The notes beneath the pieces are model-generated. The model was not told the origin of the DNA. It saw only the letters and a program-made list of their open reading frames with translations, and did not search any database. Source: Candidatus Caldarchaeum sp. (GTDB lineage Archaea > Thermoproteota > Nitrososphaeria_A > Caldarchaeales > Caldarchaeaceae). Taken from it: a stretch of DNA of 64,000 nt. This document shows, piece by piece, positions 1 through 11,381 of the stretch (positions are counted from its first letter, which is position 1; every line of letters begins with the position of its first letter). The stretch spans positions 1 to 64,000 of the forward strand of contig JAWBKB010000001.1 of assembly GCA_038831915.1 (NCBI GenBank), given 5' to 3'. A program made the translations under genes and the position numbers.

Positions 1-395
1 CTTCCCTCGCTGTCGAAGAACCCTCTAAGGAAAGCAGACCTGCATTCTATACTGTGTTCTATGAATCTTTTGATTCTCTCTATATCTAAAGGCTTCTTCA
101 ACAGTTCGTAGAGGACTTTACACTGTAGTTCAACGATGAATCGTCTAATTGACCATTTGGGTTTAGGCGGGTCCCTCTTCAAGACAGCAGAAAGACATCT
201 GGAGAACTCTTCAGCAAACTCCCTATCTTTCACATTCAACCCTATATACATTGGATTGTAGGATTTTCGAGGCTTAGAGAGACGATGGACATATCCGTCA
301 CCGGCTACGACGCCGATGACGTATGCCAGCTCTCTGGATGGTTTTGCTGAAGGTATGTGTATGCCGTTGTATGGGCTGAGAACGGAATACCTCAT
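1..395 (-). mobile_element. Free-standing double-motif LAGLIDADG (DOD-type) homing endonuclease ORF; runs off the window start, probably 5'-truncated
   Basis: Hand translation from ATG at 395: MRYSVLSPYNGIHIPSAKPSRELAYVIGVVAGDG...KVLYELLKKPLDIERIKRFIEHSIECRSAFLRGFFDSEG. Both LAGLIDADG motifs are present. No intein or intron context seen. Not in the ORF track. Confidence 0.85.
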
Positions 396-449
396 TTCAG
401 CTATAAAGACCATGAAGAACCTCTCCACACACCGTCAGGCCAGCATCCA

Positions 450-4203: not shown

Positions 4204-5976
4204 CTAAACCTTTCTTCGAAGCCTTTTTCTCGCCCTAAAGCGTTCTTCTCCTATGCTTTCCGCAAGAACAGTGCTGACCTCGTCGATACGGTCGTTACAT
4301 GCTTTGAGAAGTTCTTCATAGACTTTCAGAGTTTTGTCCAAGCTTTCAGCCAGAGATGCTTCTCCTCTTTCGATTTTCGCCATGTATTCTTCGACCAGAC
4401 GTCGTGTTTCAGGCGTGACCAATCGCGGGTCTGTTTTCGCAAGAGATTCGATTAGAGCCATTCCAAGCCGAGTGGGCTTGAAATATTTCCCCTCTTTGAC
4501 AGCGTATTTCCGCTCAATTATCAGCTGCGGATAGGTCGCTCTCGTAGCGTCTGTGCCGATGCCGTTTTTCTCCATCAACCTTAGCAAATCGGCTTCAGTT
4601 AGTCGTGAAGGAGGTTTCGTTTCATCCTCTTTCAACTCCAACTTAACAATCGTAAGCTTTTCACCGACGTTCATCACAGGAATCGGGTTGTCGGCCGGCC
4701 TAAAGTAGCCAAACGCCTGGTAAAACCCCTGAGAAATTATCCGTGTTCCATGGGCTTTCAACGGCAACGTCTCGATTTTGATTTTCGCGTCTTGCACGAG
4801 CTGCACCGCGTCGTCGAAGTAAGCGTTTCCGTAAAACCTGCGGGCTATATATTCCCAGATTTTCATCAACACACCTGTGCCGCGAAAAGTCGCCACCGGA
4901 TAAATGGGTGGATGAGCACCGTCGTCCCGAGCCCCGTTCCGGGGATTTGCATTCTCCCACATGGCGGGTATTCGGTTGAGGTTTTCATCTCCTTTCACGG
5001 CTTTGAGCGGTGTTTCAAAGTCAAAGTTCTTCCGGTAACGATTGGTGTCAGTTCGTGGATAGCTGATGTAGCCCTCCGCGTAAAGCTGCTCCATCAATTC
5101 GAGAAGCTTGTTAGCGGACAACCCTGTCAACCGGGTTAAATCACGTAGCACATCGTCGGTTCTCATCGGCAGAGGTCGCGGGATTTTTTTCTCGGATTCA
5201 TAATAGTTGGACACATATGCTTCGCTTGCTTCCTCCGCTTTCCTGAACAGTTCCTTCGCATCGGTAGCGGAGCGGAAGATTTCGCTGACGGCCATAAATT
5301 CTTCTCCTTTTTGGGTTCTTAAAACGGCGTGAATTGTCCAGTATTTTTCCGGCTTGAACGACAGAATTTCTTTCTCCCTTTCAAACACGAAGTTAAGCGT
5401 CGGTGTTTGGCATGAACCCCAGCTAATCAGCCTCACCCATTTTTTACGACGTGTTGATTCGGTCAGTAGGCGGGTGAAAGCCGCACCAGTGATAAGGTCG
5501 AAGACTTGTCTAAACCTCGCTTTTTCGACCCAGCGCATGTTCAGGCCTCTTTCAAGGTTTCTAATGCTTGCAAATAGTTCTCTGCGGTCGACGGAGTTAA
5601 ACCGCATCCGCAGACATTCAGCGTTTTCGCCTCGAATTTTTCGATAGGTTTCCAATATTTCATATCCGATGAGTTCTCCTTCCGAATCGTTGTCGGTCGC
5701 TACCACGAGTGAACTGTTGTTTGAAAAAATTTTCGTCAAAGTTCTATAAGTTGAGAGGTCGCTTACTTTGTCGACGACTGTTCTCAGCTTTATGATTTCA
5801 AGAGGGTGTTTAGCTCCCCATTCATAGCCGTCTGGAAGGTCCGCCTCCATCATATGTCCTCGCACCGAAACTACTTCTGCGTTTATTTTCGCCGCGGCGA
5901 CGACGCTTTTGATGGCTCGGGCTACGCTCGCTTTCTCCGCCACAATCACCAGTTTACTGTTGTTCATCGGCTCCAA
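4204..5976 (-). CDS. topA: DNA topoisomerase type IA (archaeal Topo III-like), no C-terminal Zn fingers
   Basis: TOPRIM AEK and ATDNDSEGE, QTPTL, active-site GYISYPRTD, AHPPIYP, GIGTDATR. Confidence 0.93.
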   Translation of the reverse strand: MEPMNNSKLVIVAEKASVARAIKSVVAAAKINAEVVSVRGHMMEADLPDGYEWGAKHPLEIIKLRTVVDKVSDLSTYRTLTKIFSNNSSLVVATDNDSEGELIGYEILETYRKIRGENAECLRMRFNSVDRRELFASIRNLERGLNMRWVEKARFRQVFDLITGAAFTRLLTESTRRKKWVRLISWGSCQTPTLNFVFEREKEILSFKPEKYWTIHAVLRTQKGEEFMAVSEIFRSATDAKELFRKAEEASEAYVSNYYESEKKIPRPLPMRTDDVLRDLTRLTGLSANKLLELMEQLYAEGYISYPRTDTNRYRKNFDFETPLKAVKGDENLNRIPAMWENANPRNGARDDGAHPPIYPVATFRGTGVLMKIWEYIARRFYGNAYFDDAVQLVQDAKIKIETLPLKAHGTRIISQGFYQAFGYFRPADNPIPVMNVGEKLTIVKLELKEDETKPPSRLTEADLLRLMEKNGIGTDATRATYPQLIIERKYAVKEGKYFKPTRLGMALIESLAKTDPRLVTPETRRLVEEYMAKIERGEASLAESLDKTLKVYEELLKACNDRIDEVSTVLAESIGEERFRARKRLRRKV

Positions 5977-6490
5977 CCTGTTCCATCAATTTTCTCATCG
6001 AACGGTCTCGTTGATATTCCCGCGGTGTTTGGACAGCGACGACGCGTGCACCGGTCGGCAGGTCAGCTATGTGAATGAAGGTTTTGGTGTAGCCGATTTT
6101 TTCGGCTTTTCTCGCGATGGTTATCGTCAACGCAGGCGCCGATACAACCATAGCTGCCTTCTGTCCGGTCACGATGGCTTTTCTATCCGGGCCGGAGCCG
6201 ATGTAAGTTGTTTGACAAGAATCAACCTCTAAAACACGTGAAGCCGCGAGCTCTTTCGCGACGCAGAAATCTTGAATCTGGTAAACGTCGTCAACCCGTA
6301 AAGCTTTTCCCGACACAGGTGTCCCTACGAAAAGCCAGTCAGCAGGCTGTCGAAGCCTGACAACATACTCCTCACCAGCAACTGTTGAAATTGTCACGTA
6401 GTACACCACTCCGTCCGAAGTCACTTTGGTCGAGATGTTGGAGATGTAGCCAACCACCTGCCTACCGGCCGTCAACGTCGTCCAAACCAC
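5954..6490 (-). CDS. Hypothetical beta-rich protein, coupled to topA
   Basis: 178-aa ORF overlapping the topA start; no family recognised. Confidence 0.6.
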   Translation of the reverse strand: MVWTTLTAGRQVVGYISNISTKVTSDGVVYYVTISTVAGEEYVVRLRQPADWLFVGTPVSGKALRVDDVYQIQDFCVAKELAASRVLEVDSCQTTYIGSGPDRKAIVTGQKAAMVVSAPALTITIARKAEKIGYTKTFIHIADLPTGARVVAVQTPREYQRDRSMRKLMEQVGADEQQ

Positions 6491-6826
6491 TTAAAAAGCC
6501 GAGATATTTATGAACAAACAACGCCGAATTCATCGACAAGCCGCCTGTAATACCTGCCCGCTACAATAGGTCTGTGGGCGTGTGGTCCGAAAGACTGGCG
6601 GAGATAGATTGTCAACGTTGTCATTGATGCTTCGTGTTTTGGGTCAGCATCATGATGTTAGTGAAGCTGTTTTGGACAAACACTTCAAAAATAGGCGATG
6701 AACATAAGCTTTGGTTCTCGCATCATCAAACGTTGAAAAATTCGATAAAATCCATGTCTCATGCTGAGTTGACGAAAATAATTTTCCTGACATAAAAGCA
6801 GCTGCCTAAAGATAAATAAAGGCTAC

Positions 6827-7441
6827 CTAACTTTTTTCTACGGGGCCCCGGTAGCGCAGGCTGGGAGCGCGTCCGGCTGAAGACCGGAGTGTCGGCGGTT
6901 CAAGTCCGCCCCGGGGCAGGCGATATTGTAAAAGTGGGAAATAGTGGGGCAAAGTTGGAAAAACAGGGAGAGTTTGGCCTGGAGGCTTTAGTCGTCCAGT
7001 CCTTATGAGGTAGTCTTGGAGTCGTCGTTGTTTCCTTCTTATCGTGAATCCCATCCATTTGTAGAACTTCAGCCGAAAGCCGGCGGGAACGTATAAGTTG
7101 TATGCGTTCTTCCTTGTCTCGTATGTTTTTCCTTTTCTAGTGTCTCTGAAGCTTGTTCCATGCTTTGTCATGAGATGTGGTCCCGTCGTCCCTATCTCCA
7201 GCGACTCAATGAGCTGTCTGACGTATCCAAGCAGTTTTAAATCGGTGTTGTAAAAGGTTACGTCTCCATTTTTAGATATGCATCCTTCGCTGTCGAAGAA
7301 TCCCCTCAGAAAAGCCGCCTTACATTCATCGTCATACTCTACGAATTTTTTGATTTTCTCTATGTCTAATGGCTTCTTCACCAGCTCGTAGAGGACTTTG
7401 ATGACTGTGGGACGGTGGTAGCCAAGCCTTGTCAAACACAT
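6827..7441 (-). mobile_element. 5'-truncated LAGLIDADG endonuclease (C-terminal half); frame continues antisense through tRNA-Phe
   Basis: KVLYELVKKPLDIEKIKKFVE...AAFLRGFFDSEG...FYNTDLKLL...GFTIRRKQRRL. Nt 7281-7400 align without gaps to nt 1-120 (93/120 identical by hand count). First LAGLIDADG motif is missing. Confidence 0.85.
6845..6918 (+). tRNA. tRNA-Phe(GAA), intronless, CCA not encoded
   Basis: GCCCCGG TA GCGC..GCGC G TCCGG CT GAA GA CCGGA GTGTC GGCGG TTCAAGT CCGCC CCGGGGC A folds as a complete cloverleaf. Confidence 0.97.
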
Positions 7442-7528
7442 CCAGCCTTAAGCTGGCCGAGACTAGCATCGACAAGCTCAAGACCTGCTCCCGAAGGGGT
7501 TCGCGGGTTTTGAATCCCATCCCCTGCA
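7412..7528 (+). pseudogene. Decayed tRNA-Leu(CAA) with a D-loop intron (~7436-7466)
   Basis: TAGCCAAGCCT(T)GTCAA-[intron with CCAGC/GCTGG hairpin]-...CT CAA GA CCTGC T CCCGAAGGGG TTC GCGGG TTTTGAAT CCCAT CCCCTGCA. Long variable arm; acceptor, D, anticodon and T stems all carry mismatches. Confidence 0.75.
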
Positions 7529-7672
7529 AAGAGTAGACAGACGTCGCCGGCTCATTTGAAGAGTTAAAAATTGTGCTGTCTGTCTCACGGCGCTGTGTAA
7601 GAATGTGAACGTCGGCTCAAACCCGCTAACAGATTTAAACGAGGCTGGGGGTTTGCTGGCTGGTGGTGTGGG

Positions 7673-7985
7673 CTGGTTTCTAGGGCCCGGGATTGGATGA
7701 GGCAGGCGGTCAGGGACTTCCCATGCTGAAGCGTCTTTGAGGCAGGGCGACTATGAGTGGGCTTGTTTCGCGGCTCAGCAGGCTGCCGAGAAGGCTGTCA
7801 AAGCCCTTTACGAGAGCAGGAACATGGAAGCCTGGGGACATTCTGTGTCTAGGCTGTTGGAGCACCTCCCAGAAGAGCTCAAGCCAGCGGCATCGTTAAT
7901 CGACAAAGCCAAAGAGCTGGACAGACACTACATCCCCACAAGATGCCCCAACCTCCACAGCGAAGGCGCTCCACTATTATACTAG
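7673..7985 (+). pseudogene. HEPN domain protein (HEPN-MNT pair), frameshifted
   Basis: (M)VSRARDWMRQAVRD / frameshift / HAEASLRQGDYEWACFAAQQAAEKAVKA...WGHSV...LDRHYIPTR; premature end. Confidence 0.8.
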
Positions 7986-8017
7986 TAGTGATGCGTAGAG
8001 GGCGGTTAAGCAAGCCC

Positions 8018-8415
8018 GTGAGATCATCGAATTCTGCAGAAGTAAGGGTGTTCAGCCTTGACTACAGCATGGTGATGGAGAGGGTTAGGGATTACGCTCG
8101 GAAGCTCGTTGACAGAGGTTTGGCGGAGCTTGTTGTTCTAGTCGGCTCGTTGGCGAAGGGAAACTACACACCTTTCTCGGACATAGACTTAGTGATAGTG
8201 GTGAAAAAATCGACGAAAAACCTGTCGACAGAATTCCAGCCTACATCGACCCCAGCCTCCCGCTGGATGTCGAGCCACTCGTCTTCACCGTGGAAGAGTT
8301 CCTTCAAATGGTCAGAAAGAGGCCATTGTTCGCGGCGGAAGTGATTGACAACGGAGTGTTCCTAGCTGGAGACAGAAGCCTGCTGGAGAAAGCCATGAAA
8401 ACAAGCCGTGAATAA
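8018..8415 (+). pseudogene. Minimal nucleotidyltransferase (MNT) antitoxin, one frameshift
   Basis: LVGSLAKGNYTPFSDIDLVIVV, then a shift near the A-runs at ~8204-8220, continuing PVDRIPAYIDPSLPLDVEPLVFTVEEF...SRE*. Confidence 0.8.
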
Positions 8416-8800
8416 TCGGCGACGCCAAGACATTCTTAAGCGAAGCCGACTAACCATTGATGAAGCACCAATGGTTAACTATTAGCAGTGCTTCTTAGCA
8501 TGATAAACCCAGAAAAACTTTAGTCAGGGATGAAAGAAAGACCATTTGCAGAACTAACAAACCCTATTCAATTTGAGGTTCGGTTCCTTTACAAGCATTG
8601 GGAATATCCTCTGATTCTGAATGTTTGGCGAAGTTGCTCATGAATGAGCTCTGATTGGGATGGCGTGGTCTTGTGGTGGCGATATCTATTTGTTTGTCGG
8701 TTTGTGCACACGCTGTCAGCTGGTTTGGGGTTTCTGCCGTAGATGCGACAAAAAGTTTGAAAGCGGCTCTGCTTTGAAGGCCAAACACCGCGGCTAGTAC

Positions 8801-9269
8801 GTGGCTAGGTTTTTCACACCATACATGGTGTTGGGAGCTGTGTTGTTTTTTGGTGTGGCTTACTCGCCCCGTACCTGGCGCAGCCCCGTCAGACGGGGAC
8901 AGCGGGCGATGACAACGAGACGCTCCTCAACACCTGCATGAACGCGTATGAGAGGATAAGCATGCACATCCACGTTAGGCTTACTGGTTGACGGCGTGGA
9001 TGTTAAAGTTCAGGCAGACATTGGGATCGCCTCCGACGGACATATAAAAGTAATACACACCCATGACGAGACAGGGATAGCGAATGTCGAGTCACCTGTC
9101 CACATGGATTCTACATTCGGCGACTTGTCTGAGGCAAAGCCCTCGCCCGCCAATGTTTCGACAAACACTGCGGGGAGGTTCAGGTAAAGGTTGACGGCTG
9201 GAAACGCATGGCCGGTAAAACCACATGTCGAGAGATGGAGATAAGATCACAGTTAGGGCAGCCACATAG
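8801..9269 (+). pseudogene. Membrane-anchored HxH...HTHD protein, multiply frameshifted
   Basis: Pieces across frames: MARFFTPYMVLGAVLFFGVAY / ...TCMNAYERISMHIHVRLT / VDGVDVKVQADIGI...IHTHDETGIANVESP...TFGDL / GKALARQCFDKHCGEVQVKVDG / RDGDKITVRAAT*. Confidence 0.65.
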
Positions 9270-9358
9270 CCTTCGATGGAATATGCGTGGCAACGTTTCA
9301 AACTTTGTCGTGCTTTGTCTACTAGCAAGATTGATATTTACTAAACGTCTTTCTTACG

Positions 9359-9604
9359 ATGGATAATGACGAGGAAACCGTGAAAGTAACAAGAAATTAT
9401 CAAGTAACGATACCCAGCCGCGTCAGGTCAAAGGCCGACATAAAAGTGGGGAGCATCGTCAAAGTCGTCTACGACGCGCACGAGAATGTGATAAAGATAA
9501 TTCCTTTGAAGAGGAAGAGGACGACGGTTCGGCTAGGCAGGAAGGTAACGGTTGAGGAAATAGAGGAAGCTGCTGAGAGGCTTTTGGATGAGGCTACTTC
9601 CTGA
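9359..9604 (+). CDS. AbrB/MazE/SpoVT-family antitoxin (VapB-like)
   Basis: VKVTRNYQVTIPSRVRSKADIKVG signature; stop overlaps the PIN gene start. Confidence 0.9.
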   Translation: MDNDEETVKVTRNYQVTIPSRVRSKADIKVGSIVKVVYDAHENVIKIIPLKRKRTTVRLGRKVTVEEIEEAAERLLDEATS

Positions 9605-9992
9605 CACCAACGTTCTAGTCTACGACACAGTTGAGGACAGCATGCACCATGACAAGGCTGTAAAAATCATAGACGCAGCTGGAGAGCTGGCCATACCGCC
9701 CATAGTTATCCATGAATATGTCTAGGTAATGCTGAGGTTTTCAGTATCACCAAAAACAATCTCAGTGAAGATTCATGAATATCTTGAAGACCCGAGGACG
9801 AAATACCTCGTCGAACCTCTCGTCGCAGTAGATGATGCGCTCAGAATGATGGAGGAAGATAAAGCGCCGGTAAAAGAGGTTAACGACTACATCATCCTTT
9901 CGTTAGCTTTGAGACATGGACTGACGCTCGCAACGTTTGACATCGAGCTGAGAAAGAGGGCGGCGGCTAGAAAGGTAAGCGTTATACCTTAA
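9588..9992 (+). pseudogene. PIN-domain toxin (VapC-like) with one in-frame amber stop
   Basis: MRLLPDTNVLVYD...IHEYV*VMLR...VNDYIILSLA...LATFD; TAG at 9723-9725, probably from TGG. Confidence 0.85.
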
Positions 9993-10139
9993 GTAATGTG
10001 AGCTTGCAAAAGCAGGCGAGGGTAGTTTTCCGCTGTTTTCAGAGTCAACCTGTTAACAATACTCACACAATCCGTAAATATACTATATTTTGGTTAATGT
10101 TAAATGCTTTGACGCCGATTTATGTATCGGAGTTTTTCC

Positions 10140-11381
10140 ATGTTGAGAAAAGCCATCATCCCCCTCGGGGGCTTGGGGACGCGTCTTTACCCCCTCACAG
10201 CTGACACTTCAAAGGCCATGATCAGGTTTTTGAACAGGCCTTTAATCGAATGGATGATCGCCTCGCTTGCGAGGCAGGGAATTCGCGAAGTTTATCTCGC
10301 GGTTAGCGGTTTTAACAACTACATTCCGTTAATCGATTATATGGGCGGCGGTGAGCGGATTGCGTTCGCTTTGAGGATGGAGCCGGACATTTTCCGCGTT
10401 CGTTACCAACCGAATATAACGAGTCTTGGAAACGCTCACGCCGTCAAAATAGTCATGGAATATTATGACATAAACGAGCCCGTGCTGGTGTTGCAGGGAG
10501 ATACAGTTGCAAAGCTTGACCTTCTCCAAATCTGGGTTTCACACTATGAAAAAGCGGCTTTCATGTCGGTTGGGTTGAAAGAGTTGGAGCCGTGGAAAGA
10601 CGTGAGCATGTATGGGGTTGCGGATGTCGACGAAGAATACCATGTCAGAAGGTTTGTCGAAAAGCCTAAAACAGCTCCGCCTTCACGGCTCATCAACACA
10701 GGCATCTACGTTCTTTCACCTCAGTTCATGGATTTCTTGAAAACATCCGCGGGGATGCATCTGCTCAAAACAGGACAGCTTGACTTCGGCAAACACGTCA
10801 TTCCAACCCTGGTTGAACACGGATACCATGTTTCAGGTTTTCTAGTCAAAGACTACTGGTTCGACATCGGAACACCCGAAACATATCTAGAAGCCGTTTT
10901 CTACGTTCTTCGGCAGCTGAGCCTCGACGATTTAGGCGTGACGTTTAGCTATAAAGGAGTACGGATGCAGGGCCGAACTCAGGAATCACGAAGGCTACAC
11001 ACCGAGCTCGTCCAAAGAGAAAAAGCCGGCCAAATATTCTTCGAAGGAGAAATTCTACTGGGCCGACATATCTCCGTCGGAACTGGAACCAAAATCATCA
11101 ATTCAGTTATCGACCACTACACTATACTTGACCATGACGTGACGGTTGAAAACTCCGTAATAATGGATCGATGCGTGGTTGGAGGACGCACCGTTGTCAA
11201 GGACAGTATCATCGGCAGACATGTCAGGATTGGAGAGAACTGTGAAATCATCGGCTCGATTCTGGGAAACGGGGCTGAAGTCATGAACGGAGTTCGAATC
11301 ATCGGGTCGAAGATTTGGCCTCATCAAAAACTGAGTGAAAGAACCGAAATTTACAACGTCGTTTCGCAGCCGCCTACTTGA
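10140..11381 (+). CDS. NDP-sugar synthase (sugar-1-phosphate nucleotidyltransferase with LbH domain); probable ADP/UDP-glucose source for glycogen
   Basis: IIPLGGLGTRLYPLT, FVEKP, INTGIY, DFGKHVIP, YWFDIGT and hexapeptide repeats; overlaps glgB start. Confidence 0.85.
   Translation: MLRKAIIPLGGLGTRLYPLTADTSKAMIRFLNRPLIEWMIASLARQGIREVYLAVSGFNNYIPLIDYMGGGERIAFALRMEPDIFRVRYQPNITSLGNAHAVKIVMEYYDINEPVLVLQGDTVAKLDLLQIWVSHYEKAAFMSVGLKELEPWKDVSMYGVADVDEEYHVRRFVEKPKTAPPSRLINTGIYVLSPQFMDFLKTSAGMHLLKTGQLDFGKHVIPTLVEHGYHVSGFLVKDYWFDIGTPETYLEAVFYVLRQLSLDDLGVTFSYKGVRMQGRTQESRRLHTELVQREKAGQIFFEGEILLGRHISVGTGTKIINSVIDHYTILDHDVTVENSVIMDRCVVGGRTVVKDSIIGRHVRIGENCEIIGSILGNGAEVMNGVRIIGSKIWPHQKLSERTEIYNVVSQPPT

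Follow-up and report, generated by a model that had tools for sequence, protein, structure and literature searches.

Positions 6827 to 7528 of a 64,000-nucleotide stretch of Candidatus Caldarchaeum sp. DNA (GenBank assembly GCA_038831915.1, contig JAWBKB010000001.1, positions 1 to 64,000; hereafter the window) hold an intact tRNA-Phe gene, a piece of a LAGLIDADG endonuclease gene on the opposite strand and a decayed tRNA-Leu gene. We propose that the endonuclease piece is a dead, 5′-truncated member of a free-standing family of mobile elements that dock at the ends of tRNA genes and would spread by cutting and copying, and we put the probability of this reading at roughly 0.7. The order and orientation of the three features had been predicted from the letters alone (below, the sequence-only reading), and ARAGORN, Rfam, Pfam and alignments show this prediction to be right in every detail. 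The features of the locus, with the second copy of the endonuclease gene in the window, are the following.

6845..6918, forward strand: intact tRNA-Phe(GAA) gene, the docking site (ARAGORN; Rfam tRNA, 61.2 bits).
6919..6988, reverse strand: 3′ tail of the endonuclease element (alignments among copies).
6989..7426, reverse strand: LAGLIDADG endonuclease pseudogene fragment, residues 131-275 of 276 (tblastn, Pfam).
6827..7441, reverse strand: mechanical open reading frame (ORF) of 204 amino acids (aa) that reads through the antisense strand of the tRNA (ORF list).
7398..7412, forward strand: junction, a remnant of the ancestral 5′ flank of tRNA-Leu(CAA) that abuts the truncated endonuclease (homology).
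7413..7528, forward strand: pseudo-tRNA-Leu(CAA) with its D-loop intron kept (alignment to the gene on contig C14 and to relatives' genes).
3..434, reverse strand: second family copy, an N-terminal half cut by the contig start (tblastn; Pfam LAGLIDADG_3, E-value (E) 2.4e-07).

The window copy of the endonuclease is dead. By tblastn it aligns solely to residues 131-275 of an intact 276-aa paralogue on contig C12 of the same genome, so it is a C-terminal half, a pseudogene and not a working member of the family. It carries the second motif only (FLRGFFDSEG), having neither the helix-turn-helix (HTH) domain nor the first LAGLIDADG motif, and Pfam LAGLIDADG_3 matches residues 39-86 of the window ORF (E 1.7e-11). 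The 3′ tail that follows runs through a C-rich motif, cctccaggccaaactctccc, a T-run and an A+T-rich stretch up to the tRNA discriminator. The earlier claim that homology to the other copy ends at about 7400 is borne out by a DNA match that covers 7283-7399, at 80.5% identity to positions 3-119 of the window.

No stop codon is found in the endonuclease ORF ahead of tRNA-Phe. The frame, which includes FLRGFFDSEGCI, is open through the antisense strand of the tRNA as had been noticed (ORF 6827-7441), and its C-terminal end, RLPRGGLEPPTLRSSAGRAPSLRYRGPVEKS, is tRNA-Phe read antisense. A 1-nucleotide (nt) deletion at 6979 in the X5, X6 and X9 populations shifts the frame, and since the frame differs between strains, no conserved meaning attaches to the tRNA being read antisense; the read-through is a trivial consequence of a lost stop in a pseudogene. 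Elsewhere, gene callers also run family ORFs into the antisense strand of adjacent tRNAs (P0007, P0014, P0019, P0054 and P0111), with C-terminal tails such as ...GRDLNP..., ...GSLNP... and ...KFEP (alignment A1). This kind of read-through is a recurrent annotation artefact of docking.

Metagenome contigs from other studies and independent hot springs span tRNA-Phe, the fragment and the pseudo-tRNA. Record 19 of X6 spans 6889-7601, records 27-29 of X9 span 6594-7019 and 7322-7883, and records 9 and 12 of X5 span 5500-7309 and 7296-10500. These independent bridging contigs show that the arrangement is real and is not an artefact of assembly. No joints that would mark alternative alleles were reported in the metagenome contigs, which drop rare variants and are therefore silent on rare empty alleles.

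The family to which the fragment belongs is free-standing and multi-copy in Caldarchaeales, and its members combine an HTH domain with two LAGLIDADG motifs. The host genome (G000; 1.59 Mb, 34 contigs) has six family places by tblastn: C12, C20, the window fragment, the window start and the ends of C15 and C4. The C12 copy is intact (C12:38903-39730), the C20 copy is frameshifted, and the contig ends of C15 and C4 carry C-terminal parts. Three contig ends break within copies (window 1-434, C15:1-290 and C4:105978-106252), as is expected because the family is a repeat. Between the C15 and C4 ends, both of which adjoin a tRNA-Gly gene (TCC or GCC), the similarity is 97%. C1 and C15 share a 10-nt overlap at their starts, and these two contigs may be neighbours.

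A database search gave 317 relatives at E<=0.001, and the best 120 of the 317 all have PF14528. Those that bear names come from Nitrososphaerota, Aigarchaeota or Caldarchaeum metagenome-assembled genomes (MAGs), where the annotation reads 'LAGLIDADG family homing endonuclease' or 'intein-encoded DNA endonuclease-like protein'. Of the 41 related genomes searched, 27 contain between 1 and 59 matches each, and many of these matches are truncated, stop-containing, frameshifted or at contig ends.

The AlphaFold2 model of the intact C12 copy has a mean pLDDT of 89.8. Three N-terminal helices (residues 2-46) and a poorly defined linker (54-58) precede a double LAGLIDADG core, made of two alpha-beta-beta-alpha-beta-beta-alpha halves. 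The top Foldseek matches of this model are I-DmoI (target TM-score 0.77, E 1e-9) and PI-PfuI, and I-DmoI is also the best match of the family by sequence (E 1.7e-4). Intact members carry both ...GVVAGDGY... and ...FLRGFFDSEG..., the pair of motifs that characterizes monomeric LAGLIDADG enzymes, and GDG (D80) and D175/E177/G178 are invariant in 31 family sequences. As modelled, the intact element is about 1.4 kb long and encodes one protein, with an N-terminal three-helix HTH, a linker and an I-DmoI-like monomeric double-LAGLIDADG predicted nuclease.

An HTH fused to LAGLIDADG domains is also found in WhiA. WhiA chains are among the fold matches (E ~1e-5), and there is a weak match to Pfam LAGLIDADG_WhiA (E 0.21), so the family might be a domesticated, WhiA-like DNA-binding regulator of tRNA genes and no mobile nuclease at all. 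However, the catalytic acidic residues are invariant, the number of matches varies from 0 to 59 per genome within one order with many copies frameshifted or truncated, and homologous sites differ in the presence or absence of the gene. We give a regulator of this kind very little credence.

Among longer proteins, the search for an intein or intron host gave one weak match, to a ribonucleotide reductase (RNR) intein (E 3.9e-4, 32% identity, 42% of the query). The copies lie in intergenic DNA, antisense to tRNA, which is not the setting of an intron- or intein-borne nuclease. The independence from introns and inteins that had been proposed from the window has thus stood up, and the family stands alone.

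The central property of the family is its position relative to tRNA genes. We tabulated distance and orientation for 90 loci from relatives that have a C-terminal end. Thirty of these are the best place in each genome, and a further 60 come from the top of the same list, with a match that reaches the C-terminal residues; places that lack a C-terminus, two copies with heavy damage and all lower-listed places were omitted. A convergent T-arm motif lies 30-135 nt past residue 276 in 48 of the 90 copies (median 81 nt), and only farther off in another 4. ARAGORN confirms a tRNA in 36 of the 48 cases, covering 18 amino-acid classes. An Rfam scan of 40 sources, 37 of which are copies without a T-arm, found one extra docked copy (L031), which brings the totals to 49 docked and 41 undocked. 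With 147 occurrences of the T-arm motif in the 1.59-Mb genome, the chance expectation is 0.0048 per site; 49 of 90 against about 0.005 per copy agrees with the proposal that the family sits beside tRNA genes. Five copies in the host genome retain a 3′ end, and three of them are docked, at tRNA-Phe(GAA), tRNA-Gly(TCC) and tRNA-Gly(GCC), with the end of the copy 60-70 nt from the 3′ end of the tRNA and on the opposite strand.

The junction with the tRNA is precise, as comparisons between copies in one genome illustrate. In G032, copies beside tRNA-Ile, tRNA-Trp and tRNA-Phe are 85-89% alike over ~300 nt, and in G038, copies beside Ser, Asn, Pro, Gly and Glu tRNAs are 80-89% alike over ~320-350 nt. 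The similarity ends 0-3 nt from the discriminator, and beyond this point each tRNA has its own acceptor stem. That such similar copies run right up to different tRNAs indicates that the elements have moved recently between tRNA genes, landing at the 3′ boundary in one orientation. The elements dock 3′ end to tRNA 3′ end, in antisense, at tRNAs of many identities, and their presence at a site varies between related genomes.

Sites with and without the element can be compared directly. Two genomes of the same genus, G011 and G001, have an identical tRNA-Phe (75 of 75 nt between the window and G011) followed directly by TTTTC..., that is, GCA then TTTTC where the window has GCA then GGCGAT. About 90 nt past their tRNA-Phe is a gene whose window counterpart starts at 10122. 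The 3′ tail of the window element departs from these empty alleles at the first base past the tRNA, and the native downstream sequence, TTTTCAGAG, picks up again at 10036. A73 of tRNA-Phe and the native TTTTC directly border the insert, and the flanks are intact on both sides. This comparison of empty and filled alleles had been proposed as a check on the sequence-only reading, and it locates the insertion exactly after the tRNA. The tRNA-Arg(TCT) site is a further example. In G041 it is empty, with 35 nt from the stop codon of a protein gene to the 3′ end of the tRNA, and in G018 the corresponding spacer is filled by 1.45 kb that hold the endonuclease gene alone; the flanks of these two genomes are ~71% alike. 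There is, in short, presence/absence polymorphism at homologous sites, both at tRNA-Phe (G011 and G001 empty, G000 filled) and at tRNA-Arg(TCT) (G041 empty, G018 filled).

In the window, the insert is larger than the endonuclease fragment. It is a 3.1-kb island of decaying toxin-antitoxin genes that begins exactly after tRNA-Phe and holds, in order, the fragment, pseudo-tRNA-Leu, the HEPN and MNT genes, ~900 bp without a family match, VapB and a broken PIN gene. The features of the island that were not listed above are these.

6919..10035, no strand assigned: whole insert, 3117 bp, as measured against G011 and G001, whose tRNA-Phe site is empty (comparison of alleles).
7701..7982, forward strand: shortened HEPN toxin gene, 94 aa vs 172 aa in G003 (Pfam HEPN, E 1.7e-23).
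7943..8415, forward strand: MNT nucleotidyltransferase gene in two frames, ORFs 7943-8344 and 8113-8415 (Pfam NTP_transf_2, E 1.6e-09).
9335..9992, forward strand: VapB (MazE/AbrB-type) and a stop-interrupted PIN-domain VapC (Pfam MazE_antitoxin, E 3e-11; PIN on both pieces).

The X5 population has a 6-nt deletion at 8184 relative to the window. Together with the deletion at 6979, these differences among populations fit ongoing decay of the island.

The 3′ ends of tRNA genes are classic attachment (att) sites of archaeal integrative elements, and HEPN-MNT and VapBC pairs are typical island cargo. The fragment might on these grounds be a remnant of an integrase-type element or provirus that used the 3′ end of tRNA-Phe as its att site and carried the LAGLIDADG gene as cargo. 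Pfam found no recombinase or integrase domain in the ORFs of the window insert, its only matches being HEPN, NTP_transf_2, MazE and PIN, in agreement with the sequence-only reading, which had seen no integrase. The 22-nt 3′ end of tRNA-Phe occurs once in the window when up to 3 mismatches are allowed, so no att-type repeat was detected there. With neither a recombinase nor a tRNA repeat, an integrase-type element was set aside; the G018 insert at tRNA-Arg, with its 1.45 kb and endonuclease gene alone, and the same junction at tRNAs of 18 amino-acid classes also make it a most improbable source of the fragment.

For the free-standing family we suggest the following route. The nuclease would recognise the conserved end of a tRNA gene (T-arm and acceptor), with the HTH domain as a possible reader, and would cut at the 3′ boundary of the gene. 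Repair of the break by copying an occupied locus would then install the element and leave the tRNA unharmed. Homology within the tRNA may steer this repair on the tRNA side, and joining at the far side may be less precise, which would fit the mosaic upstream regions described below. In the window, docking at tRNA-Phe would have been followed by loss of the 5′ half of the element, and the remaining fragment would now abut a displaced piece of an old tRNA-Leu(CAA)-HEPN-MNT locus. More tentatively, and with less confidence than we have in the reading of the fragment itself, we suggest a mobile element of a new kind. Its LAGLIDADG nuclease would be directed by the HTH domain to the universally conserved T-arm/acceptor end of tRNA genes and would cut at the 3′ boundary, so that the element could spread in a transposon-like manner and settle, in a fixed orientation, behind any tRNA gene, occasionally dragging or displacing neighbouring DNA, including tRNA genes. 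If so, it would be the first homing endonuclease that targets a whole class of genes and not a single allele.

Several observations weigh against our reading. In 41 of the 90 copies there is no convergent tRNA in the flank examined, and these undocked copies comprise whole basal clades as well as scattered members of the main clade. The C12 copy, the only intact one of the host genome, is itself undocked, with the nearest tRNA 788 nt off, and in 3 cases the tRNA lies on the strand of the copy itself. Kinship among the 90 copies, and among the genomes that carry them, means that the counts describe a habit of the family and are not independent events. The left ends are heterogeneous and the upstream regions mosaic, and no defined two-ended element could be drawn. 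A T-run directly follows the tRNA at 20 of 51 occupied sites, compared with 7 of 22 other tRNAs of the host genome. We infer both the recognition of the target and the route of repair, and our reading does not account for how an element would reach a fresh tRNA locus that offers no homology on the far side. We had also considered that the element might serve as a replacement terminator for the tRNA; this idea was dropped, as the same T-run counts (20/51 vs 7/22) show no enrichment at occupied junctions.

The far side of the window fragment leads to the pseudo-tRNA-Leu. Positions 7413-7528 have 77% identity over 116 nt to a working tRNA-Leu(CAA) gene at C14:6723-6837, including a non-canonical D-loop intron, and 79-81% identity to the tRNA-Leu(CAA) genes of relatives. 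In the alignment to the C14 gene, mismatches fall in the acceptor, anticodon and T stems, and the T-loop has one extra base. As a functional tRNA, 7413-7528 received no ARAGORN call with introns allowed and no Rfam tRNA match at E<=10. Downstream of the working tRNA-Leu(CAA) of G002, G003 and G005 lies a HEPN-MNT pair that is 83% identical to the pair in the window, and the window MNT gene is likewise 83% identical to its counterparts in these genomes. The window also keeps ~15 nt of the sequence that lies upstream of tRNA-Leu(CAA) in relatives: homology to G003 and G005 begins at 7398, and homology to the endonuclease copy at 3-119 stops at 7399. The common 5′ flank and the HEPN-MNT neighbours imply that the pseudo-tRNA is the old copy of the locus, displaced and then decayed. 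Judged by these alignments, pseudo-tRNA-Leu is most simply a displaced ancestral copy at the tRNA-Phe flank, which would have decayed once a second copy existed; the working gene on C14 would have made this decay tolerable. The sequence-only reading had taken the pseudo-tRNA for a by-product of the nuclease, a claim that finds no support, given that the ancestral 5′ flank and HEPN-MNT neighbours of G002, G003 and G005 are retained.

A related possibility, in line with the sequence-only reading, is that the pseudo-tRNA-Leu block was captured during repair of an endonuclease-induced break at the tRNA-Phe boundary. An occupied locus would first have been copied, with a template switch to the tRNA-Leu(CAA)-HEPN-MNT locus, after which the far end was rejoined. 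The 3117-bp insert does lie exactly between A73 and the native TTTTC with no flank lost, and truncation of the endonuclease falls at ~codon 131, no more than 15 nt from the tRNA-Leu 5′ flank. The phage nuclease SegB is, moreover, reported to drive segmental amplification of anti-defence loci (PMC13096335). However, the host genome has no second HEPN-MNT block at an 'original' locus, so copying and moving are indistinguishable, and a later internal deletion in an island of successive insertions at one point gives the same picture; the exact retention of both host flanks fits capture and the deletion route alike. The sole tandem tRNA pair beside a family copy, a tRNA-Val pair by L059, was also considered as a nuclease-driven duplication and rejected as an artefact of assembly, since a run of N separates its two members. 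We consider capture unlikely, though less so than either the integrase-type element or the WhiA-like regulator.

The working tRNA-Leu(CAA) gene on C14 has an unrelated 5′ flank and a TnpB-type gene downstream (Pfam Cas12f1-like_TNB). The 1.5-kb unit of tRNA-Leu(CAA) and TnpB (C14:6722-8459, equal to L005:2223-3960) is 93% identical to G003. Core genes of G000 and G003 are only ~67% alike, and both flanks of the unit differ between these genomes. The tRNA-Leu(CAA) gene on C14 seems to have travelled with an insertion sequence (IS)-like element. Both tRNA-Leu(CAA), at C14:6722-6838, and tRNA-Leu(TAG), at C15:6314-6427, have a non-canonical D-loop intron of ~29 nt. ARAGORN miscalls the former as a tRNA-Arg(GCG) with an anticodon-loop intron and misses the latter. 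It also reports a candidate tRNA-Gly(TCC) with a 636-nt intron at C16:4707-5439, where there is no endonuclease match.

On the upstream side of the element, a conserved, G+C-rich block of ~300 nt precedes the intact C12 copy on the same strand (L001:2117-2330), and it is also found at 10 further loci (L008, L009, L011, L023, L034, L056, L058, L063, L064 and L068). Within it, the two arms of a 13-bp inverted repeat, CCCCGACAGGAGG...CCTCCTGTCGGGG, enclose an inner repeat, and GGGAG..ATG comes next. The inverted repeat pairs in 86% of cells, with covariation not above that of shuffles, and the block has no Rfam match at E<=0.1. An identity as RNase P or signal recognition particle (SRP) RNA was rejected, those genes being located elsewhere in the genome. 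The block could be a leader RNA, an operator or an end of the element, and its repeat may be either an RNA structure or a DNA palindrome. In one subfamily (L035, L058 and L010), ~300 nt upstream of the endonuclease are conserved with coding-like, three-periodic differences and an ATGA overlap with the endonuclease start; this stretch may be a small second gene of the element.

The nearest characterised relative of the family is I-DmoI, an archaeal monomeric enzyme encoded in a 23S rRNA intron. Like I-DmoI, family members have two LAGLIDADG motifs per chain, with a catalytic acidic residue in each. Unlike I-DmoI, they are free-standing, have an extra N-terminal HTH, reach tens of copies per genome and lie beside tRNA genes, not in an rRNA intron.

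In behaviour, the closest likeness is to free-standing homing endonucleases of phages, such as SegB of T4, which lies in a tRNA gene cluster. These practise 'intronless homing', in which a conserved neighbouring gene is cut and the nuclease gene is copied in by repair. SegB, too, is an intergenic nuclease gene that adjoins tRNA genes, and is a functional analogue from another nuclease family. However, SegB is a GIY-YIG enzyme at one phage locus, whereas the present family is LAGLIDADG, archaeal and chromosomal, and is found at many tRNA genes with a nucleotide-precise junction. The amplification of anti-defence loci by SegB is reported to be a response to a defence that cleaves tRNA-Tyr (PMC13096335).

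Other elements share the landing place. SSV-type and pNOB8-type integrative elements also land at the 3′ end of tRNA genes; the family differs from them in having neither an integrase nor a duplicated tRNA 3′ segment, and in being a 1.4-kb single-gene unit. The Ty3, Dictyostelium TRE and Tn7-like/CRISPR-associated transposon (CAST) elements use tRNA genes as safe landing sites, by means of integrases, transposases and RNA guides. To our knowledge, none of these uses a LAGLIDADG nuclease.

Within the same archaeal group, a multi-copy 1.87-kb 'a+b' insertion sequence has been described at tRNA-Thr loci of Caldiarchaeum subterraneum (Sugahara et al. 2012, PMC3293823). The 'a+b' element consists of a non-coding part of ~550 bp and an 813-bp ORF, which a classifier assigned to DNA-binding or recombination, and it has been tied to tRNA gene fragments, rearrangement and tRNA gene splitting. 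It lies inside tRNA-Thr (positions 24-27) and splits the gene, rather than at the end of the tRNA as in the present family. By its description, the 'a+b' ORF is no more than a possible member of the family; the term LAGLIDADG has 0 occurrences in the available text of PMC3293823. Outside subscription journals, which our search did not cover, no paper turned up that places LAGLIDADG genes at the 3′ ends of archaeal tRNA genes, and we could not find a printed account of tRNA-gene-end targeting by a free-standing LAGLIDADG family.

The usual picture of a homing endonuclease is that of a parasite confined to one site in an intron or intein. The present family is free-standing, and by landing at the exact ends of tRNA genes with many different identities it has risen to tens of copies per genome. 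Should the nuclease read the architecture that tRNA genes share, this would be a new logic of target choice for the enzyme class, and the family would be a source of thermostable, modular meganucleases. It would also be a driver of genome breaks, of MAG contig ends and of tRNA-linked islands in Caldarchaeales. Finally, if our reading is true, the family would provide a testable agent for the frequent splitting, interruption and duplication of archaeal tRNA genes, the cause of which is a long-standing question.

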